Part shown: positions 16,497 to 32,000 of the stretch, piece by piece
Numbering within the stretch: the first letter of the stretch is position 1
Layout of the letters: each line of letters begins with the position of its first letter
Source: Candidatus Saccharimonadota bacterium
GTDB taxonomy: Bacteria > Patescibacteriota > Gracilibacteria > UBA4473
Assembly (NCBI GenBank): GCA_020632335.1
Contig: JACKFV010000001.1
Coordinates: 150,001-182,000 of the forward strand
DNA length: 32,000 nt
Direction of reading: 5' to 3'
Translations under genes and position numbers: made by a program
Notes under the pieces: generated by a model
Told to the model about the DNA's origin: nothing
The model's input: the letters and a program-made list of their open reading frames with translations, nothing else
Database searches by the model: none

Positions 16497-17725
16497 GACG
16501 CCGGAGAATGCCCCAAATGGAGCATCTTCCGCCCCAGAAGCGCATTCACCACCAGGAGTACCCCTCCAATACTCAGCAGAGCAACGCCTACCGGGAGAAG
16601 CCCTAGGAGCTGCTTGCCGAGTGTGGTGTATAGCGCAAAGACACTGAAGATAATCGAGCGTGTCGTTGCTATGGAGGCCCCTTGTGTGTGCTCTACGAGG
16701 GTGTGGTTCCAGGCCGGCTGCCAGACTCCATCACACCCGCTAAAGAGAAGGAAGAGCCCTGCCACTACCCACCAATGCCCAAGCCAACACCCCGCTAGCA
16801 CGCACAATAGCCCCTGGAGGGTCGTCGCATACACCCATGCACGACTATACCCATAGCGTTCTCCGAAGCGGTAGACGTACTTATTAGCCAGCATGGTAGC
16901 TATGCTCGCCCCTGCCATGAGGACCCCCGCGTACCACACGGGCATACCCTGCGCCTCTAGCGTGGGGAGGAGAATAATGGGGAAATACGCTACATGGTTC
17001 CCCAGACTCCGGTAGAAGAGGAGCAAGCGGAGCTTGGCGTCACGCCCTATATGCCGGAGGGCAGTGCGGGCAGTCTGTACGTTGGCCTGCCACGCGGAGC
17101 GCAGCGTCGTGAAGTGCTGGCGCCCGGGGAGTTCCCGGAGCTGCAGCGTGAGCACCACCAACGCCAGCCCCACCACAGCATCGAACCACAGCAGTACCTG
17201 GTACCCTGTGTCGGGGAAGTTCTTTAAGAGCCATGATGCCAGAAGTGGTGTCAAGAAAGATGCCAGATTCTCGAGGAACATGAGATGTCCTATCGCCCGG
17301 CCAAAGGTCTGCTCTTCTCCCAGGACTCGGAGGTTTTCTTCGAGGAAAGCCTGCCCCGTGCCACTCCAGAAGCTATAGTACAGTGCCCCCAGCACCGCCG
17401 ACGCCACAAACCCCCACCACTGTGGAGAGAGAAGCAGCACCAACACGGCCATAAAATGCGCACTGACCGAAAACACCAGCGACCGCTTACGGCCAGTAGT
17501 GTCTGCGAGAACGGAGGTTGGTAGCTCGAGCAGCCACACACAGAGTGTCCCGATATTAGACAGGAGAATAATCTGGTAAAGGCTGAGCCCCATGTGAGTA
17601 TAGAACAGCTGCACCACCGGAGATAAAAACGCCAGCCCCGCTAAGAAATTTATCCACCGGTAGCGACGGAGGTTCCGTCTGGCCTGTAGAGGAGTGACTG
17701 GCAGCATGGGAGTGCAAGAGAGCAT
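16493..17725 (-). CDS. MFS transporter (about 410 aa)
   Basis: About 12 hydrophobic helices with MFS-like loop motifs (LADTTGRKRSL after TM2). ATG 17725 lies 1 nt after the upstream PBP stop. The stop overlaps the convergent gene's stop (CTAG at 16493-16496). Confidence 0.75.
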   Translation of the reverse strand: MLSCTPMLPVTPLQARRNLRRYRWINFLAGLAFLSPVVQLFYTHMGLSLYQIILLSNIGTLCVWLLELPTSVLADTTGRKRSLVFSVSAHFMAVLVLLLSPQWWGFVASAVLGALYYSFWSGTGQAFLEENLRVLGEEQTFGRAIGHLMFLENLASFLTPLLASWLLKNFPDTGYQVLLWFDAVVGLALVVLTLQLRELPGRQHFTTLRSAWQANVQTARTALRHIGRDAKLRLLLFYRSLGNHVAYFPIILLPTLEAQGMPVWYAGVLMAGASIATMLANKYVYRFGERYGYSRAWVYATTLQGLLCVLAGCWLGHWWVVAGLFLLFSGCDGVWQPAWNHTLVEHTQGASIATTRSIIFSVFALYTTLGKQLLGLLPVGVALLSIGGVLLVVNALLGRKMLHLGHSPAS

Positions 17726-17726
17726 A

Positions 17727-19925
17727 CTAGCGGTCTGGTGGGATGTCAAGATACTCCACGAGGAACTCTCCAATGCGTTTAAAGGTCACCGCAGCGGTCT
17801 CAGACCCCCACTGACTGGCCTTGGGGAAGTCCATCTTTACCAGCACCACAAAGGCCGGGTTCTCATACGGCGCATACCCCGCAAAGGTGGCTATCGTCGT
17901 CCCGATTTCCTCTTGCGCGCGGCCAGCCGCGTCGTAGGTCTGGCTGGTGCCCGTCTTCCCCATGACCGTATGGTGGGGCAGCTTGGCGGCGCTGGCATAG
18001 CCCTTGGCCACGCTCTCGGCCAGCATGGCTTTGATCATCTCATACGACTCCTTGCGGATGACCCGGTGGCGCAGCACGGGCGGGAAGTCCTCCTCCGTGC
18101 CATCGCTGTGGATAATGCGCTCCACAATGCGCGGCTCCACAAGGTAGCCCCCATTCGCCAGCGCGGCAAAGGCCGTCAGCATCTGTATGGGCGTCACGGC
18201 TATCCCCTGGCCAAACCCACGCGTAACGAGCTCTGAGGCCGTCCAGTCATGCCAGATCTCTAGTTTGCTGGGGTTCTCCCCCGGGAGCGCGATGTCGGTA
18301 TACTCGCCAAAGCCAAAGGATTTGAAGTACTCGTAGAGCACCTGGCGGCCCATCTTCTGCGTGACGAAGGCAATGCCGGTATTCAGCGAGCGGTTAATAA
18401 CGCTGATCATACTCGTGCGCCCGGCATAGACTCCGTCGGCATTCCGGATGGTGAATTCGTCCACCTCCACTGGCCCCGTGTCGTCATAGGTAGTGGTGGG
18501 GATGCCCTCATCAGCGTCCAGCGCAGAGGCCATTGTGACGGCCTTCATCACTGAACCCGGCTCGTAGATGTCGGCCACGGTACGGTTCCGGAAGACCTGC
18601 GGCCCCCAGGTATTGACATAGCGGTAGTAGAGCCCGTCGTCTGTGACGGTAGGGATAGCCTGGTTGAAGAGGGGATTCTCGCGGTCAGTATCCTCCTGCT
18701 CAGCTGTGATGGGATAGGTAAGGAAGGCATCACCGAAGCTATTGGGGTCAAAGAGCGGGGCATTCACCATGGCGAGGATATCGCCCGTCTGTGGGTCCAT
18801 GACGATGGCCTGCGCACTATCCGCGTCAAAGCGCTTGCGGTCCTCCTCCAGGAGCTTCTCCACCGTGCCCTGTATGACCCGGTCTATCGTGACCACAATG
18901 TCGCTACCGTCCTGCGCCTGTACCATGCCCGTGCCCTCCAAGCGGTTGCCCAGCAGGTGCTGCCCTGAGACATTCGTGGCGCCGAGGATCTGCCCGTCCT
19001 TCCCCCGGAGGATGGCGTCAAAGCGCTCTTCTATCCCGTAGCGGCCCGTCCCCTCCTTGTCGACGAAGCCCAGCACCTGCCCGGCCAGCTTCTTCTCGGG
19101 GTAGTAGCGCCAGTGCTCGTCTTGCAGGACAATCCCCCGCAGCAGCGTGCGGTACTCGGGGTCTTGCTTCAGCAGCTCTATGCGCTCGCTCACCTCGGGG
19201 ACTATCTGCCGCATCAGCACCTCATAGCGCTTACTGCGGCGGCGCATCATGTACTGCAGCTCGTCCTCCTCTACCCCAATGATGGGTGAGAGCTGCTGCG
19301 CCAGGCGCTCGGGGTTCTGGAGGTAGGTGGGGTCTACCACCACATTCCGCCCCTCTATGTACACCCCCTGCAGCCCCATCTGCTGGATGTCCGCTAGCCG
19401 AGACGGCGCCAGGTCGAGCGCCACCACGCTGCGCACCACCTCTACCTCGCGGAATTTCGCCTCCAGTTCACGCTGGTAGAGGGCAATGCGCTCGGCGGTG
19501 GGGCTATCCCAGTCATCGGGCGAGGTGGTGATGTTACAGCCCTCCGCGGCCTCACAGTGCGCGTGGATGAGCAGCGGCGCCAGCAACTTGGCCACCAGAG
19601 CTATGTCGCTGCGCTCTTGCTGGTCGAGTGGTTTGCGCGCGTCATAGGCGGGGTAGTTCAAGATCAGCGGGTCTATGGTGAGCATCTGCAGCGTGTTGTT
19701 GGTCGCCAGTGGGGTGAGCTCACTACTGGTGCGGCTCTTACGCGTGAGGATCTGCCCCCGCACCGCCGGGAGGACAAAGCGCCGCTCGTGCTGCGCGTCT
19801 GCTTTGGCCGCGTAGGCATCATGTTGCAGCACCTGCAGCTGCCACAGCCGCCCCACCATCAGGAGAAACAGCACTATAAACCCACCCATCAGCACCTGTA
19901 CCCGACGCGTAAAGGAGTACCACAT
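17727..19925 (-). CDS. Class B penicillin-binding protein (PBP2/FtsI-type transpeptidase, 732 aa)
   Basis: An N-terminal TM anchor (VLMGGFIVLFLLMVG) is followed by the transpeptidase motifs SVMK (SxxK), SLN (SxN) and KTGT (KTG) in order. I chose the start at ATG 19925 (MWYSFTRR). Confidence 0.9.
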   Translation of the reverse strand: MWYSFTRRVQVLMGGFIVLFLLMVGRLWQLQVLQHDAYAAKADAQHERRFVLPAVRGQILTRKSRTSSELTPLATNNTLQMLTIDPLILNYPAYDARKPLDQQERSDIALVAKLLAPLLIHAHCEAAEGCNITTSPDDWDSPTAERIALYQRELEAKFREVEVVRSVVALDLAPSRLADIQQMGLQGVYIEGRNVVVDPTYLQNPERLAQQLSPIIGVEEDELQYMMRRRSKRYEVLMRQIVPEVSERIELLKQDPEYRTLLRGIVLQDEHWRYYPEKKLAGQVLGFVDKEGTGRYGIEERFDAILRGKDGQILGATNVSGQHLLGNRLEGTGMVQAQDGSDIVVTIDRVIQGTVEKLLEEDRKRFDADSAQAIVMDPQTGDILAMVNAPLFDPNSFGDAFLTYPITAEQEDTDRENPLFNQAIPTVTDDGLYYRYVNTWGPQVFRNRTVADIYEPGSVMKAVTMASALDADEGIPTTTYDDTGPVEVDEFTIRNADGVYAGRTSMISVINRSLNTGIAFVTQKMGRQVLYEYFKSFGFGEYTDIALPGENPSKLEIWHDWTASELVTRGFGQGIAVTPIQMLTAFAALANGGYLVEPRIVERIIHSDGTEEDFPPVLRHRVIRKESYEMIKAMLAESVAKGYASAAKLPHHTVMGKTGTSQTYDAAGRAQEEIGTTIATFAGYAPYENPAFVVLVKMDFPKASQWGSETAAVTFKRIGEFLVEYLDIPPDR

Positions 19926-20003
19926 AGCCCCATGGTAGCGAAAAATCCCCGGTATGCTAGTGGATTCTATTGCTCTGAAGAGGCATATCACTAGCATAAG
20001 TGC

Positions 20004-20783
20004 ATGCGACGCCTTGGCGTATTTGACTCGGGTGTGGGCGGGCTGACCCTCCTGCGGGCGCTCCAGCAGGTCATGCCGGCCTGTCCCTTCCTCTACCTAG
20101 CTGACACCGCTGCCCTCCCCTATGGCGAGAAATCTCCGGCCGAAATCATCCACCGCACAGAACTCGTCACCCAGTACCTGGAGCACGCGGGCTGCAGTAT
20201 TATCGTCTACGCGTGTAATACCGCCTGTACAGTGGCCCACCAGACCGTACAAGCCCAGGGGGAGGTCCCGCACTTTGAGATCATCAGCCCGCTCAGGGAG
20301 CAGTTGCTGCTCAGCCGTGCGCGTCCGCTGGGGGTGCTGTGTACCCGGGCTACGGCGGAGAGTGGGGTCTTCCAGCAGCTGGGGGAGGAGCGTGGCAGCC
20401 CCTACCGAGTGCTCGCCTGCCCGGACCTCGTGCCGCTCATAGAGGGGAATGCCCCGCTAGAACAGCTGCAACGCGCGGTGAAGCGCTACTGCCGGGAGCT
20501 CTGCACCGGCTTCCTCCCGGAGATAGTGGTGCTGGGCTGCACGCATTATGAGGCGCTGCGGGGGCTCTTCCAGCAGTATCTGCCGCCCTGTACCCACATT
20601 ATCTCTCAGCCAGCGCTCCTGACCGTGGCCTTCCAGCGCTATGTACGGAACCACGAGGTGCTCATAGACACCATTGACACCACCCCCCGTACAGAGTACT
20701 GCTGTACTGCGCCGGTAGAGGTCCCCCAGGCCTTTACTCCCTATATCTCCCCCTCTACCCCTTGGCATGGCATCTCCCTCTAG
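20004..20783 (+). CDS. murI: Glutamate racemase (259 aa)
   Basis: VFDSGVGGLT is present, along with the two catalytic Cys motifs YACNTA and LGCTHY. Confidence 0.9.
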   Translation: MRRLGVFDSGVGGLTLLRALQQVMPACPFLYLADTAALPYGEKSPAEIIHRTELVTQYLEHAGCSIIVYACNTACTVAHQTVQAQGEVPHFEIISPLREQLLLSRARPLGVLCTRATAESGVFQQLGEERGSPYRVLACPDLVPLIEGNAPLEQLQRAVKRYCRELCTGFLPEIVVLGCTHYEALRGLFQQYLPPCTHIISQPALLTVAFQRYVRNHEVLIDTIDTTPRTEYCCTAPVEVPQAFTPYISPSTPWHGISL

Positions 20784-21975
20784 CCTCCCCGGTACTTACC
20801 TGGCTGTCCTCGGCCGCAACGCTGTGCTGAGCCGCACTGAGCTCAGCCGCTCTGCCCGGGAGCTCTGGACTGATGACGAAATAAGCCTGCTCACAGACCT
20901 GCAGGTGGAGAATCCTCGCTCCCTGCCCAAGGCCCCTGCGCAGCTCTTTCTCGACCGCCTGGGCGGCACCCAGCGCCTGGCCGTGCAGCTGCAGGTGGCT
21001 GCTACGGTGGAACAGAGCGTTAGCGTCATTGTGGACCACATAGCGCTGCACTACCCTGAGCTCTTTCCTCAGGGGGATCATAAATACCTCCTGGGCCTCT
21101 CCAGCTATGGCATGGGGAAATCTTTGAACAAAAAATATATGCAATCTATCACCCACGCCCTGGGGGAGCTGCCGCACAAGTGGGTCAATGAGGGCACGCA
21201 AAATATGACCTCGGGACGGTACTTCCACGAGAAAGTGGGACACAAGGGCGCCGAGTACATCGTGCACCAGACGACCGAGGGGATAGGGGTCTACCACACG
21301 GTGGCCAACCAGAACCTGCGCAATTACACCCTGCGTGACCGGCATAAAGAGGGCGACAGCACCATGGGTATGCTGCCGCCCAAGCTGGCGCAGATCCTCA
21401 TAAACCTCGCCCAGCCAGCCCCCGGCACCACCATCGTGGACCCTTTTTGTGGCTCGGGTACTGTGAATACCGAGGCGGCGATCATGGGCTACCCCACCCT
21501 GGGCAGTGACCAGAGCAAAGAGCACATCAAGATGGCGCAGCGCAACTGGAACTTCCTCAGTGAAAAATTTCGCTTCAGTACGGATTCTGGGCGCTTCACC
21601 ATCGCCGATGCCACGGAGCGGGACTACCCCCAGGGCGTCATGGTAACCGAGGGCTGGCTGGGGCAGAACTTCACCAGCAGACCCTCTAAAGACGCCGCAG
21701 CGCGAGAAGCCGAGCAAGTGGTGGCCCTCTGGCAGCGACTCTTCCTCACCCTCGAGAAGGCGCCTATAGACCGCATCGTCTGCTGCTGGCCCGTGTGGTA
21801 CTGCCGTGATGGCGCGGTAAAAGTCGACAAAAAAATACTTGCGCTCGCAAAGCGCTCTCACTACACTCCAGTGGCTTTTTGCGATGGGAGCCTGGGGCAA
21901 GTGTACGCGCGTGAGGGGGCCTATGTAGGGCGATGGGTGCAGGTACTGCAGAGAGCACAGGATCTTCCCGGGTAG
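20767..21975 (+). CDS. SAM-dependent methyltransferase, UPF0020/Trm11-like (putative RNA or DNA N-methylase, 402 aa)
   Basis: Motif I region reads LPPKLAQILINLAQPAPGTTIVDPFCGSGT...GSD. A degenerate motif IV-like VTEGWLGQ follows. The gene overlaps murI by 17 nt, and its stop lies 10 nt inside tRNA-Asn. Confidence 0.65.
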   Translation: MASPSSLPGTYLAVLGRNAVLSRTELSRSARELWTDDEISLLTDLQVENPRSLPKAPAQLFLDRLGGTQRLAVQLQVAATVEQSVSVIVDHIALHYPELFPQGDHKYLLGLSSYGMGKSLNKKYMQSITHALGELPHKWVNEGTQNMTSGRYFHEKVGHKGAEYIVHQTTEGIGVYHTVANQNLRNYTLRDRHKEGDSTMGMLPPKLAQILINLAQPAPGTTIVDPFCGSGTVNTEAAIMGYPTLGSDQSKEHIKMAQRNWNFLSEKFRFSTDSGRFTIADATERDYPQGVMVTEGWLGQNFTSRPSKDAAAREAEQVVALWQRLFLTLEKAPIDRIVCCWPVWYCRDGAVKVDKKILALAKRSHYTPVAFCDGSLGQVYAREGAYVGRWVQVLQRAQDLPG

Positions 21976-22040
21976 CTCAGCGGTAGAGCAATTGGCTGTT
22001 AACCAATTGGTCGTCGGTTCGAATCCGACCCCGGGAGCCA
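21966..22040 (+). tRNA. tRNA-Asn (anticodon GUU), CCA encoded
   Basis: Folds by hand into a cloverleaf: TCCCGGG/CCCGGGA acceptor, GCTC..GAGC D arm, ATTGG-CTGTTAA-CCAAT anticodon arm, GTCGG-TTCGAAT-CCGAC T arm, then G-CCA. Length is 75 nt. Confidence 0.9.
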
Positions 22041-22443
22041 GTAGAATTTATTGACGAAGAATCGCCCTTAGCAGCGGTCTTTTGTTCATGCGGATAATTC
22101 GTCAAAGCTATTATGTGAGAAGGCTCCCGCCATTCTATCGCTACGCCATCTCCGTATAAAAACACGGTTCAGACTCAGGGATAAGAGCCGTTCAATTCTT
22201 GGTTCAGACCTAGCGTCTTTCCTGGAAGGCAACTTCCGCCTCAAGGCGTCAGGTTCTGTGCGCTGCTAGTAGTAGGGAGCATCCCTAAAGGATTGCAGCG
22301 ACTTTAATTACTGTAAAATCCCTCTTAGCTTATCTTGCCCCATACTGTGGGAGTGACTCTCCTGCAACGCCATGGGTGGCATAATGGTGTGGGATTCAGA
22401 CTATTCCCCTTGCGGGATGGACAGCGGTCTGTATGCTCTTGGC

Positions 22444-24093
22444 ATGGAATCACGCGTCTGTAGCGTCTCAGGAGAATCCTTCACGGTGAGCGAGCTGGAG
22501 CGGGGTCTACGGCAGAAGTTTGGGTTGGAGGGGCTCCCCACTACGGCTCCGTGGGTGCGGTTGCGGCACTTGGGGACGTTCTGGCAGCACTTCCATCTGC
22601 ATAAGCGGGGCTGCGATAAGACGGGGCAGAGCATTATTTCGCCTTTTCGTGCAGACTGCCCGTATAAGGTGTATCACAAGGACGTCTGGCTGGAGCATGA
22701 CGACACCGTGGGCGCGGACGTAAATTTTGAGGAGCCAGTGTTTCAGCAGCTCTGGCAGTTTTTTCCGGAGAATCCGATACCAGATAGATTTGGGGCTAAT
22801 ACAGAAAACTGCGAATATACCGATAATATATGGAATGCAAAAAATTGTTATCTTTCCTTTAACGCTGACACCATAGAAAATTGTAGCTATAGTGTGCATC
22901 TCGCATTTAGTCGAGATATATATCATTGTTACTTTGTAGTAAATAGTGAGGTTGTATATGAGTCTGCCAATTGTATGCATGTTTATAATGTCGTGTATTG
23001 CGTACAGAGCCAGCAGTGCCATGACAGCGCCTTTCTCTATGACTGCCGGAACTGTAAAGACTGTATGTTCTGTTGTAACCTCCGGAACAAGCAGTACTGC
23101 TTTGGGAATCAGCAGCTGACGCAGGAGCAGTACGAGCAGAAGAAAGCGGAGTGGGATCTCTCCTCACGAGCGGTGTATGAACGCGCAAAAGGGTTTTTTG
23201 CAGAGATGATGCTGACTATGGCCTGGCATAGAGCGCTAGAACAGCAGCAGACAGAAGACGTACACGGCAACTATATAACGGAGTCTAAGAGTGTAGAGAA
23301 TGGATATTTTGTTGATAAAGTACACACTGCCGTTAACGTCTTGCGAGGGTATGACTTCCAGGATACCCTTGATTGTGTATCTCCAGGATTAAGTCAGCTG
23401 ACTTATCTGTGCTGTTTTGTGGGCTTACAGGCTTATGAAGTTCGCTTTTCTTTCTCGTGCTATGAATCGCATGACCTGGAGTACTGTGCCTTTTGCCAAA
23501 ACTGCGAGAACTGCTTTGGGTGCGTGGGGCTGCGGGGGAAGCAGTACTATATTTTCAATAAACCGTATAGCGAGGAGGCCTACCACGCGCTGAAGGCTCA
23601 GCTGGTGGAGTACATGAAGAGCACGGGCGAATACGGACAATTCTTCCCCGGGTACTTCAGCCCCGCGCCGTATGACGAGACGATCAGCGGGTATTACTGG
23701 CCACTGGATAAGTCGCAGCAGGAGCAGCTGGGGTTCCGCTATGCCGCGCCGGTAGAGAAGCACAATGCCGGCTACCGGAGCGTAGAGGAAATCCCCGATA
23801 CTCCCGAGGGCTGGACAGACAGCATGTACCAGCACGTCTACTGGGACGAGGTAGCTGGCAAGCCTTTCCAGATAACCAAGCAAGACGTCGCCTTTGCCAA
23901 GAAAATGGGCGTCCCACTGCCAGACAGCCACTATATGCGACGCATACAAGAGAACCTCCGCTGGATGCCCTTTGACGGTAAGTTGCGCACCACCACCTGC
24001 GCCCAGAGCGGCAAAACGATAGAGACCAGCTGGCCGGCAGCGTATGACGGGCGCATCTTGAGCGAGGAAGCCTACAACCAGATGGTGGTGTAG
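22444..24093 (+). CDS. Cysteine-ladder protein, paralog A (549 aa), uncharacterised family
   Basis: Homologous over its full length to paralogs B and C. The start at ATG 22444 (MESRVCSVSGESF) was chosen by alignment with MEVRHCSISGKAF. It has two Cys-rich modules, each ending C(K/E)(D/N)C(M/F)(F/G)C..LR.KQY(C/Y).., and a C-terminal FAKKMGVPLP motif. Confidence 0.75.
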   Translation: MESRVCSVSGESFTVSELERGLRQKFGLEGLPTTAPWVRLRHLGTFWQHFHLHKRGCDKTGQSIISPFRADCPYKVYHKDVWLEHDDTVGADVNFEEPVFQQLWQFFPENPIPDRFGANTENCEYTDNIWNAKNCYLSFNADTIENCSYSVHLAFSRDIYHCYFVVNSEVVYESANCMHVYNVVYCVQSQQCHDSAFLYDCRNCKDCMFCCNLRNKQYCFGNQQLTQEQYEQKKAEWDLSSRAVYERAKGFFAEMMLTMAWHRALEQQQTEDVHGNYITESKSVENGYFVDKVHTAVNVLRGYDFQDTLDCVSPGLSQLTYLCCFVGLQAYEVRFSFSCYESHDLEYCAFCQNCENCFGCVGLRGKQYYIFNKPYSEEAYHALKAQLVEYMKSTGEYGQFFPGYFSPAPYDETISGYYWPLDKSQQEQLGFRYAAPVEKHNAGYRSVEEIPDTPEGWTDSMYQHVYWDEVAGKPFQITKQDVAFAKKMGVPLPDSHYMRRIQENLRWMPFDGKLRTTTCAQSGKTIETSWPAAYDGRILSEEAYNQMVV

Positions 24094-24680
24094 TGCTCTG
24101 GGACTGCACCAGGAGCGGTCTGTGGGGGATTACCTCCTAGAATACGAGGGCCTGGTAGCACGTCTCACAGAGGATTTGCTCGGGTCTGTCGGGGGCGTAA
24201 GTGGTGGAGATAGGGGCCCCACACTGGCCGCACTCCCGGTCATACAGCCGCCGAGGATTCCGCAGTGCCATGCGTTCTTTATGCCGTTGGTCCGGGTGTT
24301 TGCGCGGGATGGGCAGCCCCATTTTTTTGTAGAACTGGAGTTCTGCCGGCTGTATGCGGTAGTTTTTTCCGGTGACCTCGCAGGCCAGTATCTCCTTCGT
24401 GATGCTCTCAGGCACGTCCGCTATGGCCTCGGGGATCACGTAGGTCTGCGGCTGGTAGTCTTTTTTGTCCTCCTCGCGCCAGGTGTAGCCCCGTGCCAGA
24501 GCCTCTTCCCGCGTGAGCGGATAGTACTCCTGCGCGATGGTTTCGTTGTAGGCAAAGGGGCTCATCCCGGGCGGGAAGAACTCGCCCCACTCGCCGGTGC
24601 GCTTCATGTGCGCTATTATCTGGTCTCGTAGCGTGTAGTATTCTTCTTTGCTGTACTGCTTATTCAGGATGCAGTACTGT
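24061..24680. repeat. Outer inverted repeat, left arm (about 620 bp)
   Basis: Its reverse complement matches 29200-29819 with no indels (p+q=53880). Positions 24133-24631 are identical to 29249-29747 in my base-by-base comparison. The arm covers the 3-prime third of paralog B, the intergenic spacer and the last 33 nt of paralog A. Confidence 0.9.
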
Positions 24681-25801
24681 GCTTTATTGAGGCCATAACA
24701 ACCGAATGCATGTTCGGTCCCTCTGAGACAAAATTGGGAATACCATACATTTGAAGAGCCATCGTACAGTTGTGCACAGAACGCAGTATCAGCAGTATTG
24801 AGTCCTATACATACTCCTTCATAGCAGTTTTGTATTCCCATACCGCCGATATTAATATCCATACAATTGTAGTTTTCTCCGTCTCCTGCAAAGAGGTCAG
24901 CGCAGTAGGTAAGATTGTCTGCTCTGTGACAGTTATAGCAGTGTGAAAGATCCCGAGAATAAGAAAGCATATCCCCCGTGCAGTTTTCACATTGTATTTG
25001 TCGCGTACACTTATAAGAGAGATTTTGCTTGAACGTAGTGAAGAATTGTGCTAGCTGAGGGAGCGTATGAGTAGCTAATAGAACTTTCAATTTCTGTTCA
25101 TATACTTCTTTTGTGAGTTGTTCGTTATTAAAACAATATTTCTTATTTCGTAGGTTACTACAGCCAAAGCAATCACGGCAACCTATACAATCTGTGCAAA
25201 AATAACAGGTATTACAATTGTCAGAGTGTAGGGTATACACACATGTATGGCACTGTGTACAGTCAATACATTCATAACACAACTCACAGTTTCTCGTATC
25301 TTGCACATCTACAGAATCAAAACAATGGAAGACATTATTCCCATAGAGACACTTTTCATTGTAATCAGCACAGGTAATGAGATAACAATCTTTCATATAC
25401 CCGCAGTTATTGCAGTAGTCACAGTTTTCTAGTGTGTCTGCCACCACTTCTCTCATAATGTGGGGGACACGTTTCTCGAGCGACGCAAATTGCTCAAAAA
25501 ATGGCACGTTAAAGTCATATGCTTGACAATAATCTCGTGCGTCCCACGCATCACTATACCAGTATTTCGGTTCATAAAGTGTGTAGCCCTTATCTTCTGG
25601 GAACATACTCAGTCCTCGTTGTTTCGTTATGTTACATTCTGCCCAATAGAGCTTTCTCTCATTTCTATACGTCAGTCTTCTTCGGGCCCGCTCCTCCGGG
25701 CACAGGGTGGGCAGTGGCACGCCCATTTTCTCGTAGAACTGTATGTCTTGGTCTGTGATAGTAAATGCTTTGCCGGAGATGGAGCAGTGGCGTACTTCCA
25801 T
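24137..25801 (-). CDS. Cysteine-ladder protein, paralog B (554 aa), uncharacterised family
   Basis: ATG ORF with about 43 Cys by my count. An N-terminal CSISGKAFTITDQDIQFYEKMGVPLPTLCPEER motif and a related C-terminal CEVTGKNYRIQPAELQFYKKMGLPIP...RECGQCG...CETC motif flank two Cys modules. It lies 36 nt downstream of the ATPase on the same strand. Confidence 0.8.
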   Translation of the reverse strand: MEVRHCSISGKAFTITDQDIQFYEKMGVPLPTLCPEERARRRLTYRNERKLYWAECNITKQRGLSMFPEDKGYTLYEPKYWYSDAWDARDYCQAYDFNVPFFEQFASLEKRVPHIMREVVADTLENCDYCNNCGYMKDCYLITCADYNEKCLYGNNVFHCFDSVDVQDTRNCELCYECIDCTQCHTCVYTLHSDNCNTCYFCTDCIGCRDCFGCSNLRNKKYCFNNEQLTKEVYEQKLKVLLATHTLPQLAQFFTTFKQNLSYKCTRQIQCENCTGDMLSYSRDLSHCYNCHRADNLTYCADLFAGDGENYNCMDINIGGMGIQNCYEGVCIGLNTADTAFCAQLYDGSSNVWYSQFCLRGTEHAFGCYGLNKAQYCILNKQYSKEEYYTLRDQIIAHMKRTGEWGEFFPPGMSPFAYNETIAQEYYPLTREEALARGYTWREEDKKDYQPQTYVIPEAIADVPESITKEILACEVTGKNYRIQPAELQFYKKMGLPIPRKHPDQRHKERMALRNPRRLYDRECGQCGAPISTTYAPDRPEQILCETCYQALVF

Positions 25802-25802
25802 A
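25686..25802. repeat. Inner inverted repeat, left arm (117 bp)
   Basis: Its reverse complement matches 28081-28197 with one mismatch (G versus A in gcgtRccact). It starts 1 nt upstream of the paralog B ATG and covers codons 1-39. Confidence 0.9.
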
Positions 25803-25837
25803 CTCTGAATGTACAGGACTTACGAGAAGACACAACC

Positions 25838-28027
25838 CTAAATAATCGGCTCGTGGAAGTTCTCGTCCTGCTGCTCTAGGCTGCCGTCTTCCCAGGCTTT
25901 TATCTGTGCTTCGGCGTCGCGTTTGGGCATTGCGTAGGTCTTGCGGCTGTGCTCTCGTATCTCTTTGGCGCAGTTCTTCTCGGGGTAATGTATGGTGAGC
26001 GTCCGCCCACTGAAGGCCTCTTTGAGGTCGCCTTCTATGCTCATTTTGGTGTAGAAGTCTCGTACCCCCAGGTTGATAATGTCCCGCGCGGTGAACTTGG
26101 GCTGCAGCTCCTTCTCGAGAATCTGCGCGTCGTCGCCCCCTACCCGGAAGGTAATCATAGACCCCACATTCCCAAACACCGTCTTGAGGATCTGCGGGGT
26201 GAGCTGCCCCAGGAACTGGTGCGCTATGGTCAGGCACAGCCGGTACTTACGCGCTTCGCTCATGATCTCATCGAAGGTATCAGTGGCAAAGTTCTGGAAC
26301 TCATCCACATAGAAGTAAAAGTCTCTCCGGTTTTCTTCCAGGGTGTCGGCGCGTTCCATGGCGGCTTGGTATATTTTGGTCACGATAATGGCGCCCAGCA
26401 GCTGCGCATTTTCTTCCCCGAGGATCCCCTTACTGACCTTCACCAGCAGTATCTTCTGCCCGTCCATTACCTCCCGTATGTTGAATTTATTATGCGGCTG
26501 GCCCACAATATTCCGTATCATATTCGAGGCCAAGAACTGCCCTACTTTATTGAGGAGTGGTGTGATGGCCTGGTTATCGAATTTCTCACTCCAGCCGGCA
26601 AATTCATTCACCCAGAAGCTCTTGACCGTGTCGTCTTGTATATTCCGCACGATGTCCTGGCGGTAGTTTTTATCCGTCAGCATGCGCATGATGCTCAGCA
26701 CAGTGGTGCCGTCACTGTCCAGCAGCGCCAGCGTTGTCATCCGCAGCACGTGCTCCAGGCGGTCATTCCACCCCGCGCCAAAGAGTTTTTCGAATATCTC
26801 GAGGAAGCCGGTGGTGACCCGTATCTTCAGCTCTGGCTTGACATTCTCTATCGGGTTGAACGCTATCGGGAAGGCAATATCTGTGGGGTCTATCAGCACT
26901 ACGTCTTTCTGGCGGTGCTCGGGCACCATCCGGAGGACATTATCTACCAAGTCCCCATGGGGGTCCAGCACGCCTACGCCTTTGCCCGCCTGCAGGTCTG
27001 CCTGTATCAGCAGCTCAATGAGCTTACTCTTCCCGCTCCCGCTCTTCCCCACCACGTACAGGTGTCGCCGACGGTCACTACGCTTGATACCAAATGGCAC
27101 GCTACTCCCGTGGAAGTTCGTCTTCCCGAAGAAACTAATGTCACTGTCGTGGGTGTCTGTAGGGAGGCCTGGGGGGGCTTCTCCTTTGCGGCTGATGACC
27201 TGGATAATATTGCTCACCTCTCGTTCATTGGGCAGGTGGTAGAGGGTGGCTATCTCATCAGACGATAGCAGCAGACTGGGGTGGCTGCGCTTAGCAAAAG
27301 CCTGCACTGCCGCTGCTCCTTTATACTTTTGTGCTGGTTTTATGCTATTGAGGTCAAGCGTGTTGTAGTTCTTCAGTGTTGAGAGCATAGCGCTCAGTCG
27401 GGTAGCCGCTCCCCCCATAGTAGGGCCAAAGGCCGCCACCCGCAGCGACACCCTATACAGCCGACTCTGGAGCTTACTCGTGATGCTCTGGCTGAAGAGA
27501 TTTCGGTCTTGCTTCTTGAACCAGTACTTTATCCGGAACTTATGCCGGAAGGTATCCAGCATGCGCACAATACCCATCTTCCAGTGGAAGAACCCCGAGT
27601 CTGGCACCGGCGTACAGACCAGCTGGAACCACACGCCCTCCTCTGGTTTGGTCTTGCTCATCACACTCAGCAGCCCCGCCAGGCTATCCCCGTCAAAGTT
27701 CTGGTGGGTGTTGATGGGGTAAATGGCATTCCGCGTGAGGGTTACATCGGCTCCGGCTATGGGCATCCCCTGTGGCAAGAGTGTGGTATAGTCAGGTATC
27801 TGGAGGATTTCCGCTGCGGGAAACACCGCGTAGAACTGCCCCATGAGTACCTGGCACGTGCCGGGGTCCGCCGTGAAGACAAACCCCAGATTACCACTCA
27901 TCGTCACGATTTCCAGGCTGAATGTCTGGCCCACAAGGGTCTCGTGCAACTGGTTAAGGATCTCTGCAAAGGCAACCTCCTTCTTCTGATTATTGGGGGG
28001 CACTTGTATGAGGTAGGTCTCGCGCAT
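25838..28027 (-). CDS. Soluble VirD4/TraD/TraG-superfamily (type IV coupling-protein-like) P-loop ATPase with a ~320-aa N-terminal domain of unknown function (729 aa)
   Basis: Walker A is VVGKSGSGKS (about residues 325-334), Walker B is FYFYVDEFQNF, followed by LTIAHQFLGQL, as in TraG/TraD-type NTPases. No TM helix is present. The start at ATG 28027 (MRETYLIQV) was chosen because the upstream 68 codons of the long ORF are just the antisense of the paralog C 5-prime repeat. Confidence 0.7.
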   Translation of the reverse strand: MRETYLIQVPPNNQKKEVAFAEILNQLHETLVGQTFSLEIVTMSGNLGFVFTADPGTCQVLMGQFYAVFPAAEILQIPDYTTLLPQGMPIAGADVTLTRNAIYPINTHQNFDGDSLAGLLSVMSKTKPEEGVWFQLVCTPVPDSGFFHWKMGIVRMLDTFRHKFRIKYWFKKQDRNLFSQSITSKLQSRLYRVSLRVAAFGPTMGGAATRLSAMLSTLKNYNTLDLNSIKPAQKYKGAAAVQAFAKRSHPSLLLSSDEIATLYHLPNEREVSNIIQVISRKGEAPPGLPTDTHDSDISFFGKTNFHGSSVPFGIKRSDRRRHLYVVGKSGSGKSKLIELLIQADLQAGKGVGVLDPHGDLVDNVLRMVPEHRQKDVVLIDPTDIAFPIAFNPIENVKPELKIRVTTGFLEIFEKLFGAGWNDRLEHVLRMTTLALLDSDGTTVLSIMRMLTDKNYRQDIVRNIQDDTVKSFWVNEFAGWSEKFDNQAITPLLNKVGQFLASNMIRNIVGQPHNKFNIREVMDGQKILLVKVSKGILGEENAQLLGAIIVTKIYQAAMERADTLEENRRDFYFYVDEFQNFATDTFDEIMSEARKYRLCLTIAHQFLGQLTPQILKTVFGNVGSMITFRVGGDDAQILEKELQPKFTARDIINLGVRDFYTKMSIEGDLKEAFSGRTLTIHYPEKNCAKEIREHSRKTYAMPKRDAEAQIKAWEDGSLEQQDENFHEPII

Positions 28028-28080
28028 CACTATGAGTATAGAGTTGCTTGCATCATGTGGCAATGCCAGTATGGTCGAAA

Positions 28081-28197
28081 TATGGAAGTACGCCACTGCT
28101 CCATCTCCGGCAAAGCATTTACTATCACAGACCAAGACATACAGTTCTACGAGAAAATGGGCGTACCACTGCCCACCCTGTGCCCGGAGGAGCGGGC
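28081..28197. repeat. Inner inverted repeat, right arm (117 bp)
   Basis: Partner of 25686-25802 (p+q=53883). It starts 1 nt upstream of the paralog C ATG at 28082. Confidence 0.9.
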
Positions 28198-29743
28198 TAT
28201 GAGGAGGATGGTCTGGAGGAATGAACGACACTTATATAAGAGGAAATGCGATGCCACCGGTAAAGATATTCTGTCTGTAATGGCTCCGACTTACCCCGGG
28301 CAAGTGTACACCCCAGATGCCTGGTGGAGCGATGCGTTTGATGCTCGTGAATATGGTCGTGATTATGACAACACACGCCCTTTCTTAGAGCAATTTGCAG
28401 CCCTTAATGTAGCAGTCCCAGCAGTAGGGAGAGCCGTAGTGGCCACTACTCTGGAGAACTCCGAATACTGTAATGGCTGTGATCGTCTTAAGGACTGCTA
28501 TCTTCTCTTTGAAGCGAATAATGATGAGAAATGTCTCTATGGGAGAGGTGTCTACTACAGCTTTGATACCCTTGACAGTCTACACATAAATCACTGTGAG
28601 GCCTGCTACCAAGTGGTGGACTGTCAGCAGTGTAGCTTCAGCACCTACCTCATGGATGCCACCCAGTGCACGGACTGCCACTACTGCGCCGACTGCATAG
28701 GCTGCTCCCACTGCTTTGGGTGTGTGAATCTCCGCCAAAAGCGCTACTGTTTTAATAACCAACAGTTGACTCCAGAACAGTACACAGAAAAAGTAGCCGA
28801 GTTACGAGCACGCTACACTCCTCATGAACTACACGATTTTTTCTTGGCATTCAGAAAAACCCAACCCGCGCGAGCAAACCACTCTCTCCGTGCAGAAAAT
28901 TCTACCGGAGATTTTCTCTATAACACCCAGAACTGCACCAACTGCTATGACTGCCACGCAAGCCAAGACTGCAGCTATTGCACCAATCTGGCTGAAAAGG
29001 GAACGAATCATACTAACTACGATATTTCCCTCTTTGGGAATGGCACCACCAACTCCTATGAGTGCAATGCTGTAGGAGTTGCTGTAGATAGCCTCTTGTT
29101 CTGTAGTCATTGTATTATCAATAATTATAATCTGGCATACTGTAGCTGGTGCGTCAACGGCACCCACGACTGCTTTGGCTGCGTGGGGCTGAAAAAGCAA
29201 CAGTACTGCATCCTGAATAAGCAGTACAGCAAAGAGGAATACTTCACACTACGAGACCAGATAATAGCGCACATGAAGCGCACCGGCGAGTGGGGCGAGT
29301 TCTTCCCGCCCGGGATGAGCCCCTTTGCCTACAACGAAACCATCGCGCAGGAGTACTATCCGCTCACGCGGGAAGAGGCTCTGGCACGGGGCTACACCTG
29401 GCGCGAGGAGGACAAAAAAGACTACCAGCCGCAGACCTACGTGATCCCCGAGGCCATAGCGGACGTGCCTGAGAGCATCACGAAGGAGATACTGGCCTGC
29501 GAGGTCACCGGAAAAAACTACCGCATACAGCCGGCAGAACTCCAGTTCTACAAAAAAATGGGGCTGCCCATCCCGCGCAAACACCCGGACCAACGGCATA
29601 AAGAACGCATGGCACTGCGGAATCCTCGGCGGCTGTATGACCGGGAGTGCGGCCAGTGTGGGGCCCCTATCTCCACCACTTACGCCCCCGACAGACCCGA
29701 GCAAATCCTCTGTGAGACGTGCTACCAGGCCCTCGTATTCTAG
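28082..29743 (+). CDS. Cysteine-ladder protein, paralog C (553 aa), uncharacterised family
   Basis: The start at ATG 28082 (MEVRHCSISGKAF...) was chosen by identity with paralog B. The first 39 and last ~180 residues are essentially identical to B, and the central ~335 residues are only loosely similar. It is divergent from the ATPase, with a 54-nt spacer. Confidence 0.8.
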   Translation: MEVRHCSISGKAFTITDQDIQFYEKMGVPLPTLCPEERAMRRMVWRNERHLYKRKCDATGKDILSVMAPTYPGQVYTPDAWWSDAFDAREYGRDYDNTRPFLEQFAALNVAVPAVGRAVVATTLENSEYCNGCDRLKDCYLLFEANNDEKCLYGRGVYYSFDTLDSLHINHCEACYQVVDCQQCSFSTYLMDATQCTDCHYCADCIGCSHCFGCVNLRQKRYCFNNQQLTPEQYTEKVAELRARYTPHELHDFFLAFRKTQPARANHSLRAENSTGDFLYNTQNCTNCYDCHASQDCSYCTNLAEKGTNHTNYDISLFGNGTTNSYECNAVGVAVDSLLFCSHCIINNYNLAYCSWCVNGTHDCFGCVGLKKQQYCILNKQYSKEEYFTLRDQIIAHMKRTGEWGEFFPPGMSPFAYNETIAQEYYPLTREEALARGYTWREEDKKDYQPQTYVIPEAIADVPESITKEILACEVTGKNYRIQPAELQFYKKMGLPIPRKHPDQRHKERMALRNPRRLYDRECGQCGAPISTTYAPDRPEQILCETCYQALVF

Positions 29744-29819
29744 GAGGCAATCCTCCGCAGGCTGCTCCTGTAGCAGCTCCAGAGCACTACACCACCATCT
29801 GGTTGTAGGCCTCCTCGCT
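29200..29819. repeat. Outer inverted repeat, right arm (about 620 bp)
   Basis: Partner of 24061-24680. There are three mismatches at 29235, 29244 and 29248, then a 499-bp perfect block, then scattered mismatches from 29748 to 29819. Confidence 0.9.
29787..29819 (-). pseudogene. 33-nt relic of the 3-prime end of a paralog-A-like gene
   Basis: The minus strand reads AGC GAG GAG GCC TAC AAC CAG ATG GTG GTG TAG (SEEAYNQMVV-stop). This is the same peptide and stop as the end of paralog A at 24061-24093. Similarity ends abruptly at 29819. Confidence 0.7.
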
Positions 29820-29855
29820 ATAGACCCTCGATAAAATTCCCGCTATACTAAAGGG

Positions 29856-31139
29856 ATGACGCTCCCCTTCCTCGCTATACAAGATGCCTTCCCGCTCGCA
29901 CTGGCTATAGGACTGGGAGGATTTTTCGGGCTCCAGAGGGATATCCGGCAGCTACACCGCACTCAGCGCTATATGGGGGTACGCACGATGGGCCTGATGA
30001 GCCTTATGGGCTATCTCAGTTTTCAGCTAGGAGAGGCGTGGGCCATGCTAACCTTTGGGGTCCTCGGGCTGCTGCTCATCACCAGTCATATCCTCAAGGC
30101 GATGAAGATAGCCGACCTGGGGATTACCGGTGTCATAGCGGCGCTCCTGCTCTTCTTGGTAGGGATGCTCTGTGCCCAGGGGTCGCTCTTGATTGCCTTC
30201 TTGGCAACGATGCTGCTCTCGCTTTTAGACGGTTACCGGAAAGAAGTCTATCATTTTGCAGACACCCTCACCATCACAGAGTGGCAGTCTGCACTGCACC
30301 TGCTGTTGCTCTCTGGGGTTTTGTTGCCCTTCCTTCCCATAGAACCCCTAGACCCCTGGGGGGTTGTGAGTTTGCGGTCGCTCTGGCTTTTGGTGCTGTT
30401 CATACTGGGTATTGATTTTATTGGCTACTTTTTGGCCAAGTACATCGGCAACAGCAAGAGCATTTTTATGGTATCCCTCTTGGGTGCTATGGTGAGTAGT
30501 ACCGCGGTAACCACGAGCCTCTCCCTCCAGTCGCAGCTTGCCCCAGTGGGGACTGAGCGGCTCTTTGCCGGAGGGATACTCCTGGGAACTATGGTCATGC
30601 AGCTACGAGTCATGGCAGAAATACTGGTCCTCGCTCCAGAAGCACAAAAGCTCTCTCTAGCGCTTATCCCGCTCTGTATGGCTGTGGGGAGTGCTCTGGC
30701 GGTACTCTGGATTACCTATGGGAAGCATAATACCTCCCCCCCTATAGACGAAGAATCCCTGACCCCCACGGTCTCGGTACAGTCTCCCTTTCGTATCCTG
30801 CCGGCGCTGCTCTTTGGCGGTATCTTTGCGGGCATACTGCTCGCACTGTATTTTGCACAACGCTTCTTTGGAGAGCAAGGGGTATATGCAACCGCTTTTC
30901 TCTCCGGGATGGTAGATATTGACGCTATTGTCCTCTCTGCCCTGGAGCAATTGCGTAATGGGATTATGTCTCCGCACATCGCCTCCTCCTCTGTACTCAT
31001 TGCTCTTGCCGTCAATACCGGGATAAAAGTGGTCTATACCTTCCTCTTAGGCCACCGGCGCACAGCGCTTTGGGTACTCAGTGGCATCGGTATGAGTCTG
31101 GTAGCTGGGGGCATCGGCTATGGGCTGTTTATGCTGTAG
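29856..31139 (+). CDS. MgtC/SapB-DUF4010 family integral membrane protein (427 aa)
   Basis: The protein is polytopic. The N-terminal AFPLALAIGLGGFFGLQRD matches the MgtC-type first helix motif, and the length and architecture resemble MgtC plus DUF4010 proteins. AAGGG lies upstream of the ATG. Confidence 0.65.
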   Translation: MTLPFLAIQDAFPLALAIGLGGFFGLQRDIRQLHRTQRYMGVRTMGLMSLMGYLSFQLGEAWAMLTFGVLGLLLITSHILKAMKIADLGITGVIAALLLFLVGMLCAQGSLLIAFLATMLLSLLDGYRKEVYHFADTLTITEWQSALHLLLLSGVLLPFLPIEPLDPWGVVSLRSLWLLVLFILGIDFIGYFLAKYIGNSKSIFMVSLLGAMVSSTAVTTSLSLQSQLAPVGTERLFAGGILLGTMVMQLRVMAEILVLAPEAQKLSLALIPLCMAVGSALAVLWITYGKHNTSPPIDEESLTPTVSVQSPFRILPALLFGGIFAGILLALYFAQRFFGEQGVYATAFLSGMVDIDAIVLSALEQLRNGIMSPHIASSSVLIALAVNTGIKVVYTFLLGHRRTALWVLSGIGMSLVAGGIGYGLFML

Positions 31140-31147
31140 TGATGCCG

Positions 31148-32000
31148 CTACACCCCCTGCACCTGGTAGTCAGGCGCCTGGCCATGCTGCCACTGGTGCA
31201 GCAGTCGCGCAGACTGCTCATAGAGCTGGTGGAGCGAATCATCAGCATAGAAGGCAATATGCGGCGTGGTGATGACCTGCGGGAAGGCAATGAGCGCTCT
31301 CTCCTCCGCCAGATTCGCCTCGTGCTCCAGTACGTCCAGCCCTGCGCCCCCCACCTGCCCAGACCGGAGTGCCGCCACCAGAGACGGGGTATCTATGAGC
31401 CCTCCGCGCGCGGTGTTGATGAGGATGACCCCGCGTTTCATCTGCTGGAGGGTCTGGGCGTTGATCATATGCCCGGTAGCTGGCAGCAGCGGCACATGCA
31501 GTGACAGCACATCACACTGGGGGTAGAGCTCCTCCAGACGCTCTGCGTAGGTGAAATGATAGGCCTTAGACTTCTCCTGCTGCGGCGAGACATCATAGGC
31601 CAGCACGCGCATCTGGAACCCCAGCGACGCTATACGGCACACCTGCAGGCCGATATTCCCCGTGCCCACCACCCCCAGCGTCTTGCCCCGCAGCGCCATC
31701 CCCTGCAGCCCCTGCCACGCGAACTGCCCCGCCTCCACCCGGGTATCCCCCTCACGGATATGCCGCACCAGGCTGAGCAGCAGTGCAAAGACATGCTCGG
31801 CGATGACGTAGCTGCCGTACTCGGGTATATGGCAGACCGTGATGCCCCGTGCCCTGGCGGCGGAGAGGTCGATGTGGTCATACCCCACTGAACGAGTGAC
31901 AATAAGCTCCAGATGCGGCAACTGTGCCATCACCTCGGCCGAGAGGCAGGAACTGACAAAAATGCACACCGCACGAGCAGCGCTATACCGCGGTGCCGTC
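31148..32000 (-). CDS. D-isomer-specific 2-hydroxyacid dehydrogenase family protein (5-prime end outside window)
   Basis: The NAD-binding motif GKTLGVVGTGNIGLQV is present, with catalytic-domain residues (NTARGGLID, LDVLEHE, TPHIAFY). The frame stays open upstream of GTG 31969 to the window edge, so the gene is probably truncated by the window. Confidence 0.8.
   Translation of the reverse strand, partial: TAPRYSAARAVCIFVSSCLSAEVMAQLPHLELIVTRSVGYDHIDLSAARARGITVCHIPEYGSYVIAEHVFALLLSLVRHIREGDTRVEAGQFAWQGLQGMALRGKTLGVVGTGNIGLQVCRIASLGFQMRVLAYDVSPQQEKSKAYHFTYAERLEELYPQCDVLSLHVPLLPATGHMINAQTLQQMKRGVILINTARGGLIDTPSLVAALRSGQVGGAGLDVLEHEANLAEERALIAFPQVITTPHIAFYADDSLHQLYEQSARLLHQWQHGQAPDYQVQGV

Follow-up and report, generated by a model that had tools for sequence, protein, structure and literature searches.

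A predicted double beta-solenoid protein family with 12-residue coils and zinc-ribbon ends in Gracilibacteria-class Patescibacteria, and its association with a VirD4/HerA-like ATPase

Three paralogous genes for cysteine-rich proteins, here called A, B and C, lie in the window analysed, a 32,000-nt stretch (positions 150,001 to 182,000 of contig JACKFV010000001.1, assembly GCA_020632335.1) from a Candidatus Saccharimonadota bacterium that GTDB places in the Gracilibacteria, and the gene under study was B. Protein B is built from two duplications: a basic unit of ~75 aa, composed of a treble clef and a zinc ribbon, stands at each end, and two homologous beta-solenoid modules lie between them. 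The modules are solenoids with coils of 12 residues (12-13 in module 2), in which a coil comprises two hexads, two short strands and four inward positions; every third residue of the coil (positions 2, 5, 8, 11) faces a very narrow core and Asn/Asp occupy the corners. We hold this double-solenoid anatomy with high confidence. The explanation as a whole, namely a cytoplasmic double-solenoid family with zinc-ribbon ends that is the partner of an ATPase encoded next to B, is in our view probable, with due reservation.

Both duplications were recovered by comparing parts of the family alignment with each other. The N- and C-terminal units (family sub-alignments, residues 1-78 vs 468-553) are homologous over 75 columns (hhalign probability 99.9%, E 1.2e-32), in agreement with a claim made in an earlier sequence-only reading of this DNA that the protein starts and ends with related elements. 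The same reading had described two tandem Cys-rich modules with a shared closing motif, and the comparison of residues 113-245 with 258-400 likewise demonstrated homology (hhalign probability 99.85%, E 1.1e-30, 125 columns). The closing motif [FM][GF]C..L....Y[CY][FI].N..[LY][ST].E.Y is present in two copies each in A, B and C, the copy in module 2 of B missing the first two Cys (TEHAFGC).

The AlphaFold2 (AF2) model of full-length B, based on a 120-sequence alignment, was confident and displayed regular short strands (predicted local distance difference test score, pLDDT, 89.2; predicted template modelling score, pTM, 0.90), and module 1 modelled alone (pLDDT 88.4) contained eight consecutive EEE--- hexads, that is, three-residue strands every six residues. 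The model lacks the initiator Met, and a model number therefore equals the true residue number minus 1. Coil length was derived from sequences alone, independently of AF2, by profile autocorrelation and by mutual information with average product correction (MI-APC) on 470 sequences. In module 1 the autocorrelation recurred at every third residue and was highest at 12, 24 and 36, a pattern that persisted when Cys and Ser were masked, and 24 of the top 40 MI-APC pairs were separated by exactly 12 residues (mean coupling 0.071 at 12, ≤0.021 elsewhere). Module 2 gave an autocorrelation peak at 13 and a co-variation peak at 13 and 12, with 16 of the top 40 pairs at separations of 12-13. Neither module showed a co-evolution peak at 18 or 20, nor an autocorrelation peak at 18. 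Since the maxima of both measures fall at 12 (12-13 in module 2) and the rows of 12 align, the modules are 12-residue-coil solenoids, as foreseen in the proposal of a narrow beta-solenoid of the 12-mer type. Among the long-range co-varying pairs, 59 of the top 100 join module 1 to module 2; these pairs, to which a subfamily signal may contribute, and the pTM of the full-length model are consistent with two solenoids packed side by side.

Comparison with solved structures by Foldseek returned, for the full-length model against the PDB, only left-handed beta-helix (LbH) proteins (E ≥8e-3, probability ≤0.2, TM-score ≤0.11), and, for the module alone, a mixture of solenoids (pentapeptide-repeat, CAP/RP2 and pectate-lyase-like; best E 0.17, TM-score ≤0.31). 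No confident match to a known enzyme fold appeared in these searches, and no Pfam model covers the core. Judged by the predicted structure, the core is solenoid-like, yet outside any solved class.

The number of Cys in B, put at about 43 in 554 aa by the sequence-only reading, is exactly 43, and their spacing at every third or sixth residue was borne out by counting: 25 of the 42 inter-Cys gaps are 3, 6, 9 or 12 residues long (mean 8.1 and maximum 19 in 20,000 shuffles), with A and C alike, and in module 1 of B a single frame modulo 3 accommodates 20 of its 21 Cys (127-223). In 120 family members, distances between Cys that are divisible by 3 were over-represented 2.2-5.3x, and every other lag up to 18 fell to 0.08-0.5x. 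When the family consensus of module 1 is arranged with 12 residues per row, ~9 rows follow the register [ND]-C-x / x-[CS]-x / [ND]-[CA]-x / x-C-x, and N or D precedes each ladder column residue.

The further suggestion of an array of metal-binding knuckles, or of a multi-metal or Fe-S ladder, was not supported. The Cys columns of the terminal zinc sites are present or absent together (columns 9/37, phi 0.93; 59/77/80, phi 0.95-0.98; 477/505, phi 0.98), whereas pairs of ladder columns reach phi ≤0.39 only, the strongest being a stacking pair at separation 12, and no separation-6 pair is found in the top 30 of the Cys-presence correlations. Ladder columns are mixtures of Cys and Ser (C43/S42, C54/S40, S64/C30) or of Cys with A, V, I or L, Ser being the commonest replacement, and paralog A and many homologues keep the modules and the fold signature with 27-30 Cys. 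Because the columns vary singly and swap with Ser, Ala, Val, Ile and Leu, the 'Cys ladder' is core packing of the solenoid and not a string of metal sites; its behaviour is unlike that of metal ligands or obligate disulfide partners, and obligate metal sites are limited to the terminal ribbons. Two whole coils of B carry four inward Cys each (172/175/178/181 and 196/199/202/205), and opportunistic disulfides or metal binding by these coils are possible, as is a redox-sensitive role for the thiols. As a method, the co-variation of Cys presence distinguishes real metal sites from Cys-rich packing without biochemistry.

We know of only one well-known solenoid of such geometry, that of the antifreeze protein TmAFP of Tenebrio molitor, whose repeat is TCTxSxxCxxAx. 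TmAFP (PDB 1EZG) and related beetle antifreeze proteins form a very narrow solenoid with 12 residues per coil and a small inward residue at every third position, and the modules of B have the same 12-residue period and a ladder composed of C/S/A/V. However, TmAFP is a right-handed, disulfide-dependent solenoid (bioRxiv 10.1101/2025.03.18.644030), whereas the ladder Cys of the family lack the co-variation expected of obligate i/i+6 cross-core disulfides. Furthermore, the outward rows of B consist of N/D at the corners and one aromatic row in place of a TxT ice-binding ladder, and the two modules, of ~9 coils each, form part of a multi-domain protein of 550 aa. Unlike TmAFP, B has no signal peptide or hydrophobic leader and its N-terminus is a zinc-ribbon unit; the missing signal peptide and the zinc-ribbon ends indicate a cytoplasmic protein. 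TmAFP was not among the top 50 Foldseek matches of the module, and homology to it was rejected (hhalign probability 11%). The family carries a rare coil geometry, so far linked with the disulfide-bonded antifreeze proteins of insects, over to a bacterial protein of the cytoplasm in which Cys is an interchangeable core residue, which is useful for repeat-protein classification and design.

The terminal units of B are, as traced through the family alignment, degenerate homologues of zf_Tbcl (PF13451) and zf_Tbcl_2 (PF23477), two 'probable treble clef' Pfam domains. Canonical members with full CxxC...CxxC sets exceed the gathering thresholds of both, the N-terminal unit matching zf_Tbcl with 28.8 bits (cut-off 24) and the last ribbon zf_Tbcl_2 with 30.9 bits (cut-off 27). 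In the window neither threshold was reached: B had no Pfam match at E ≤1 and C matched zf_Tbcl_2 with 15.9 bits against the cut-off of 27. Of the ligands, B retains C6 and C34 in the N-terminal treble clef, C56 in the N-terminal ribbon and C474 (with H502) in the C-terminal treble clef, and only its last ribbon is complete (C524, C527, C545, C548); the N-terminal 'Zn ribbon' of both B and C has one Cys left per CxxC knuckle. The partner Cys that B lacks (in the N-terminal unit, columns 9/37 and 59/77/80) are all-or-none across the family. The units of A, B and C thus differ from the Pfam domains by their degeneracy, and the domains are silent on the ~400-aa core. When the full-length AF2 model was compared with BFVD by Foldseek, its ends superposed on viral 'zinc-ribbon domain' proteins (root mean square deviation 0.5-1.0 Å) and nothing beyond small zinc-ribbon matches was obtained, and PDB sequence searches with the profile or with single units gave no more than look-alikes of the LIM or C2H2 type, which matched the last ribbon.

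The terminal elements had been ascribed to all three paralogs. In paralog A they are partial, with no N-terminal FYxKMG and with the zinc ligands nearly all lost at both ends. Relatives from other genomes (L002 4437-6089; P0001) have Zn-less C-terminal ribbons as well, and because of this recurrence paralog A looks like a subfamily and not like a decaying gene.

Segments of B, and the other features of the window, are listed in Table 1. The hairpin between the modules is the most variable segment of the family (median pairwise identity 0.22-0.23). In the conserved region that follows module 2, pLDDT is 94-98 over model residues 371-440, falls to 78 in one block and returns to 92-96 up to residue 470; the family median charge is 0 for the helix (385-403) and -7 for the remainder (404-470).

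Table 1. Positions (in the window) of the three paralogs, the neighbouring ATPase gene, the inverted repeat and the segments of protein B
Feature	Position	Strand	Description
Paralog A	22372..24093	+	573 aa, 27 Cys; architecture as B, zinc ligands almost all gone; closing motif twice
Paralog B, gene under study	24137..25801	-	ORF and translation; 554 aa, 43 Cys (7.8%); stop codon 24137-24139
C-terminal unit, B residues 471-554	24140..24391	-	Basic; degenerate treble clef (C474...H502) and intact Cys4 ribbon; family median charge +7
Helix and acidic, largely non-regular segment, B residues 385-470	24392..24649	-	Most conserved part; GEWGEFFPxxxSPFAYNETxAQEYxPL, near-invariant columns
Solenoid module 2, B residues 261-384	24650..25021	-	Coils of 12-13 residues; closes FGCxGLxxxQYCILNKQY; family median charge -4
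Helical hairpin between modules, B residues 230-260	25022..25114	-	DSSP helices at model residues 230-243 and 246-257; family median charge +1
Solenoid module 1, B residues 114-229	25115..25462	-	~8-9 coils of 12; closes CxxCFGCxNLRNKxYCFxN; family median charge -4
Aromatic/acidic linker, B residues 77-113	25463..25573	-	YWWSDxWDxxDYGxDFDFxxPFFEQF conserved; pLDDT 93-98; family median charge -4
N-terminal unit, B residues 1-76	25574..25801	-	Basic, degenerate zf_Tbcl-like treble clef and ribbon; family median charge +5, charge of B +3
P-loop ATPase gene between B and C	25838..28027	-	Soluble VirD4/TraD/HerA-like, 729 aa, DUF8128 N-terminal domain
Paralog C	28082..29743	+	553 aa, 37 Cys; B-like, N- and C-terminal ends near-identical to B
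Inverted-repeat left arm	24056..24694	.	639 nt, 97% complementary to 29186-29824; 3' ends of B/C and 81 nt past the stop
Inverted-repeat right arm	29186..29824	.	639 nt

A word-indexed search yielded at least 7,991 homologues, and the 120 best ones listed align over 89-100% of the query. The family distribution, for which the sequence-only reading had asked, was established by searching 1.84 billion cluster representatives exhaustively with a profile, which recovered 6,098 proteins at E ≤1e-3 (50% identity representatives), 2,510 of them at E ≤1e-30; of the 150 best profile matches, nearly all are ~530-600 aa long and aligned end to end. Almost all of the 6,098 representatives belong to Gracilibacteria, Peregrinibacteria and Peribacteria, and the named sources comprise Candidatus Gracilibacteria, Peregrinibacteria, Peribacteria, Abawacabacteria, unclassified Patescibacteria, one Bdellovibrionota metagenome-assembled genome (MAG) and one Oligoflexia record. 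Outside the Gracilibacteria-class Patescibacteria the family is next to absent. Source records annotate its members only as 'hypothetical' or 'zinc-ribbon domain containing', the Pfam, NCBIfam and PADLOC libraries gave no match for the core, no PDB neighbour of the core was found, and the literature yielded no description of the family; the Cys-rich proteins of the Peribacter genome paper are different, being large and extracellular (PMC4736985). The family was called new in the sequence-only reading, which is right for the core in that no Pfam or NCBIfam model and no paper was found, but thousands of members are present in databases and the canonical ends are zf_Tbcl and zf_Tbcl_2. Three things are new as far as we found: that a bacterial protein of the cytoplasm contains, in duplicate, a 12-residue solenoid with a Cys/Ser ladder, that the family is so large and so restricted in its taxonomic range, and that it is paired with a coupling-protein-like ATPase. 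Both the fold class of the solenoid and the terminal domains belong to kinds already known. Among protein families of the candidate phyla radiation (CPR) that are wholly without annotation, this is one of the larger, and up to nine tandem copies per locus in genomes of ~1 Mb amount to a heavy investment by these reduced organisms.

An origin from phages or plasmids was considered and rejected, as INPHARED phages and PLSDB plasmids gave no match and IMG/VR a single partial one. Against PHROGs, B had a weak match to phrog_15341, a family of unknown function (E 1.3e-5, residues 120-346). Rare members (P0116 and P0129; 729 and 731 aa) carry an N-terminal GNAT acetyltransferase fused to the full architecture, and another (P0259, 808 aa) has an unannotated C-terminal extension of ~250 aa.

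Genomic context was sampled at 85 loci (84 fetched loci and the window), in which all ORFs were clustered. The family formed the largest cluster, with 254 members, 1-9 copies per locus and a single strand in 82 of the 85 loci, and besides it only two clusters occurred in more than five loci: a TrmB-like regulator and the ATPase. The regulator, a TrmB-type winged-helix protein of 254 aa (Pfam TrmB, 50.8 bits), was present at 37 loci in 49 copies; for 42 of them a family gene is no more than 600 bp away, and in 41 of these 42 cases the two genes are on opposite strands. The ATPase (DUF8128/DUF87/T4SS-DNA_transf) was found in 20 of the 84 loci scanned for it, with 11 of its 21 copies immediately downstream on the same strand, and its gap to the family gene is 55-140 nt in L007, L014, L031, L033, L075, L076 and L082. 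The same arrangement of neighbours was observed independently in L005 and L003. In the window the ATPase gene stands upstream of B on the same strand, with 36 nt between the two. We estimate the chance of finding a given single-copy gene of a ~1-Mb genome within a 20-kb window at about 2%. The repeated pairing of the family with a soluble VirD4/HerA-like ATPase and a TrmB-like regulator offers a testable handle on two 'dark matter' families together.

The ATPase of the window matched DUF87 (40.3 bits, cut-off 23.2), TrwB_AAD_bind (29.3, cut-off 20.5) and TraG-D_C (22.6, cut-off 22), has a Walker A motif (GKSGSGKS) at residue 327, and carries a precomputed PF26449 (DUF8128) assignment; a crude scan detected no transmembrane-like segment. 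It shares Walker A, DUF87, TrwB_AAD_bind, TraG-D_C and T4SS-DNA_transf with type IV coupling proteins (VirD4, TraD, TrwB) and HerA/FtsK. Unlike type IV coupling proteins, it lacks a transmembrane-like segment, has the DUF8128 N-terminal domain and is chromosomal, and no VirB4 or type IV secretion system (T4SS) channel cluster is conserved nearby in the 85 loci. Its orthologues are 53-62% identical and come from the same taxa as the family members, often from the same contigs, spanning the Gracilibacteria-class and Bdellovibrionota/Oligoflexia sources listed for the ATPase. One Bdellovibrionota MAG has both genes on separate contigs (L029, JAXLVP010000001.1; L086, JAXLVP010000002.1), and Oligoflexia and 'Deltaproteobacteria' records exist for one or both of the solenoid family and the DUF8128 ATPase, which suggests joint transfer of the two between CPR and predatory proteobacterial-type lineages. 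The ATPase also has a strong match to phrog_5156 (unknown function; E 7e-66) and relatives at ~21-25% identity in large Bacillus phages, e.g., gp156 of phage G.

Uninterrupted same-strand arrays of roughly 6-9 family genes, extending over at least 10 kb, were observed at several loci (L028 10001-21626; L059 924-11304; L037; L039; L073) and take up a sizeable part of a genome of ~1 Mb. Paralogs of one locus are as diverged as pairs across genomes (median identity 0.36-0.55 by region), indicating that the arrays are old, and they are probably functionally differentiated. Recent cassette-like diversification as a general feature was rejected on the same comparison.

For the function of the family we propose a rigid acidic double-solenoid scaffold with two basic zinc-ribbon 'hands', which would probably be a binding partner (client, adaptor or specificity factor) of the VirD4/HerA-like ATPase. 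The most likely task of such a partner would be the handling of nucleic-acid or protein substrates; different paralogs would supply different specificities, and the TrmB-like regulator would control the system. A scaffold acting with the ATPase is a tentative assignment. Going further, the arrays, the DUF8128 ATPase and the TrmB-like regulator might constitute an unrecognised functional module of epibiotic or predatory lineages, with a soluble hexameric translocase working on or through the solenoid repertoire, which we regard as rather unlikely. The solenoids of such a module might serve as translocated clients or, alternatively, as adaptors that confer specificity when DNA or protein is handled during host/prey interaction, and in a bolder variant the stacked core thiols would hold a linear chain of metal ions.

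An alternative to the scaffold is a repertoire of translocated substrates, i.e., effector-like clients that the ATPase recognises by their basic C-terminal unit and passes on to a machinery for export or for transfer between cells in epibiotic or predatory lineages. Although the ATPase belongs to the coupling-protein family by its TrwB_AAD_bind, TraG-D_C and T4SS-DNA_transf domains, it has no transmembrane-like segment, and no VirB4-type or channel genes are conserved nearby in the 85 loci, even if T4SS-pilin-like genes do occur in the window and in L002. The diverged paralog arrays adjoining the ATPase, the basic and conserved C-terminal unit, and the presence of both families in Gracilibacteria-class CPR and in Bdellovibrionota/Oligoflexia MAGs would suit such clients. 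The proteins themselves, on the other hand, have compact Zn-containing folds without a signal peptide, and a divergence within loci that equals that across genomes is unlike fast-evolving effectors. We therefore consider a translocated repertoire unlikely.

Equally to be weighed is a multi-metal or redox protein, in which the CxxCxxC ladders would coordinate Zn, Fe or Cu ions in a row, or a row of Fe-S clusters, or form reversible disulfides, and serve as a redox switch or metal store. The Cys content is high (family median 6.8%, 7.8% in B), many ladder columns clearly prefer Cys over Ser or Ala, C208/C211 is conserved as CxxC in 98-99% of members, and two whole coils of B have four inward Cys. 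Against this stand the independent variation of the ladder columns, set beside the all-or-none behaviour of the true zinc sites, the substitution of Cys by Ser and then by Ala, Val or Leu, and the fold signature kept in paralog A and many other Cys-poorer homologues. Partners across a 12-residue coil are expected at separation 6, and the low coupling found there (3 of the top 40 pairs of module 1; mean 0.012 compared to 0.071 at 12) therefore speaks against disulfides. Moreover, Cys motifs of the ferredoxin or radical-SAM type were not found, and Pfam gave no Fe-S match. A metal or redox function of the ladder is accordingly improbable.

A DNA mimic or regulator, whose acidic solenoid would imitate duplex DNA in the way of MfpA and Qnr and modulate the translocase or other DNA enzymes, appears highly doubtful. 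The pentapeptide-repeat proteins (MfpA, Qnr, AlbG) resemble B as cytoplasmic bacterial solenoids with an acidic surface, and MfpA, AlbG and QnrB1 are among the module matches in Foldseek, but these matches are insignificant (E ≥0.5, TM-score ≤0.26), and no Pentapeptide Pfam match was obtained. Their coil has 20 residues (four sides of five) and that of B has 12, which would make a rod much thinner than B-DNA. The neighbouring ATPase is of the DNA-translocase type and the core segments are net negative (family medians -4, -4, -4, -7), yet this net charge is modest and the basic ends favour nucleic-acid binding over mimicry.

A divergent left-handed beta-helix (hexapeptide-repeat) acyltransferase-like enzyme is scarcely tenable and is largely refuted by the coil length, since for all the likeness of B to LpxA, LpxD, GlmU and gamma-carbonic anhydrase (hexad register, short strands every six residues, exclusively LbH full-length Foldseek matches), and for all the rare N-terminal GNAT fusions and the sugar-transferase genes near some members, the coil has 12 residues and not 18, the matches are those insignificant ones given above, no peak at 18 and no Hexapep Pfam match at E ≤1 were found, LbH proteins are gone from the module-only search, and no sugar or acyl gene is a conserved neighbour in the 85 loci. 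For this reason of coil length, LbH fold membership was rejected, and a link to sugar or cell-wall genes, as seen near some members, was not reproduced across the 85 loci.

Several points weigh against the double-solenoid ATPase partner that we favour. On the structural side, the best Foldseek neighbours are not significant (full-length model, E 8e-3; module, E 0.17), 'TmAFP-like' geometry is based on the period and residue pattern and not on superposition, and repeat-register effects could partly inflate the co-variation at separation 12. Some ladder Cys are near-invariant (C139, C208, C211, C368, C377), and the CxxC of C208/C211 together with C368/C377 could form one conserved site that is invisible to co-variation. 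On the functional side, the ATPase link is guilt by association, and binding of nucleic acid or of the ATPase is inferred; about three quarters of the family loci have no ATPase within 10 kb, and positions 12000-32000 of the window contain no TrmB-like gene.

In the window, the order of the block is A(+), B(-), ATPase(-), C(+). In the alignment of the three paralogs B and C are 65% identical, and A is ~33% identical to either. The start of paralog C at 28082 lies within an over-long ORF (27509-29743, +). Similarly, the mechanically called ORF of the ATPase (25838-28231) is too long at its 5' end, where it runs into the inverted copy of the start of C; homologues start with MRETYLIQ (28027), and the ATPase and C are therefore divergent and 54 nt apart. 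A sigma-70-like site is present between them on the minus strand (28063-28035).

At the nucleotide level B and C form a mosaic, with ~82% identity over the first 180 nt (34 nt upstream included; 25646-25835 vs 28048-28237), 37-66% in the middle, and 97-100% over the last ~600 nt and the 81 nt beyond the stop. The near-identical 3' tracts, and with them the conserved ends of B and C, look like a recent local gene-conversion tract. The segment of ~4.5 kb between the inverted-repeat arms could be inverted without altering either protein.

The GC content drops from ~0.6 outside the paralog/ATPase block (22000-31000) to 0.44-0.55 across it. At 21966-22040, ~330 nt 5' of paralog A, there is a gene for tRNA-Asn(GTT). 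The drop in GC could reflect the amino-acid composition of the genes of the block, or an island inserted at the tRNA-Asn gene. The rest of the window is ordinary chromosome with genes for PNPase, RRF, FtsQ-like and RecF-like proteins, an S41 protease, PBP2, a racemase and T4SS-pilin-like proteins, a chromosomal gene set that we consider typical of CPR bacteria. Two T4SS_pilin/TrbC-like ORFs (12983-13537 and 13544-14083) lie ~10 kb from the paralogs and are flanked by genes for proteins of 647 and 777 aa with hydrophobic, signal-peptide-like N-termini and no Pfam match; this region (11040-16496) may be a surface or pilus locus of the CPR type.

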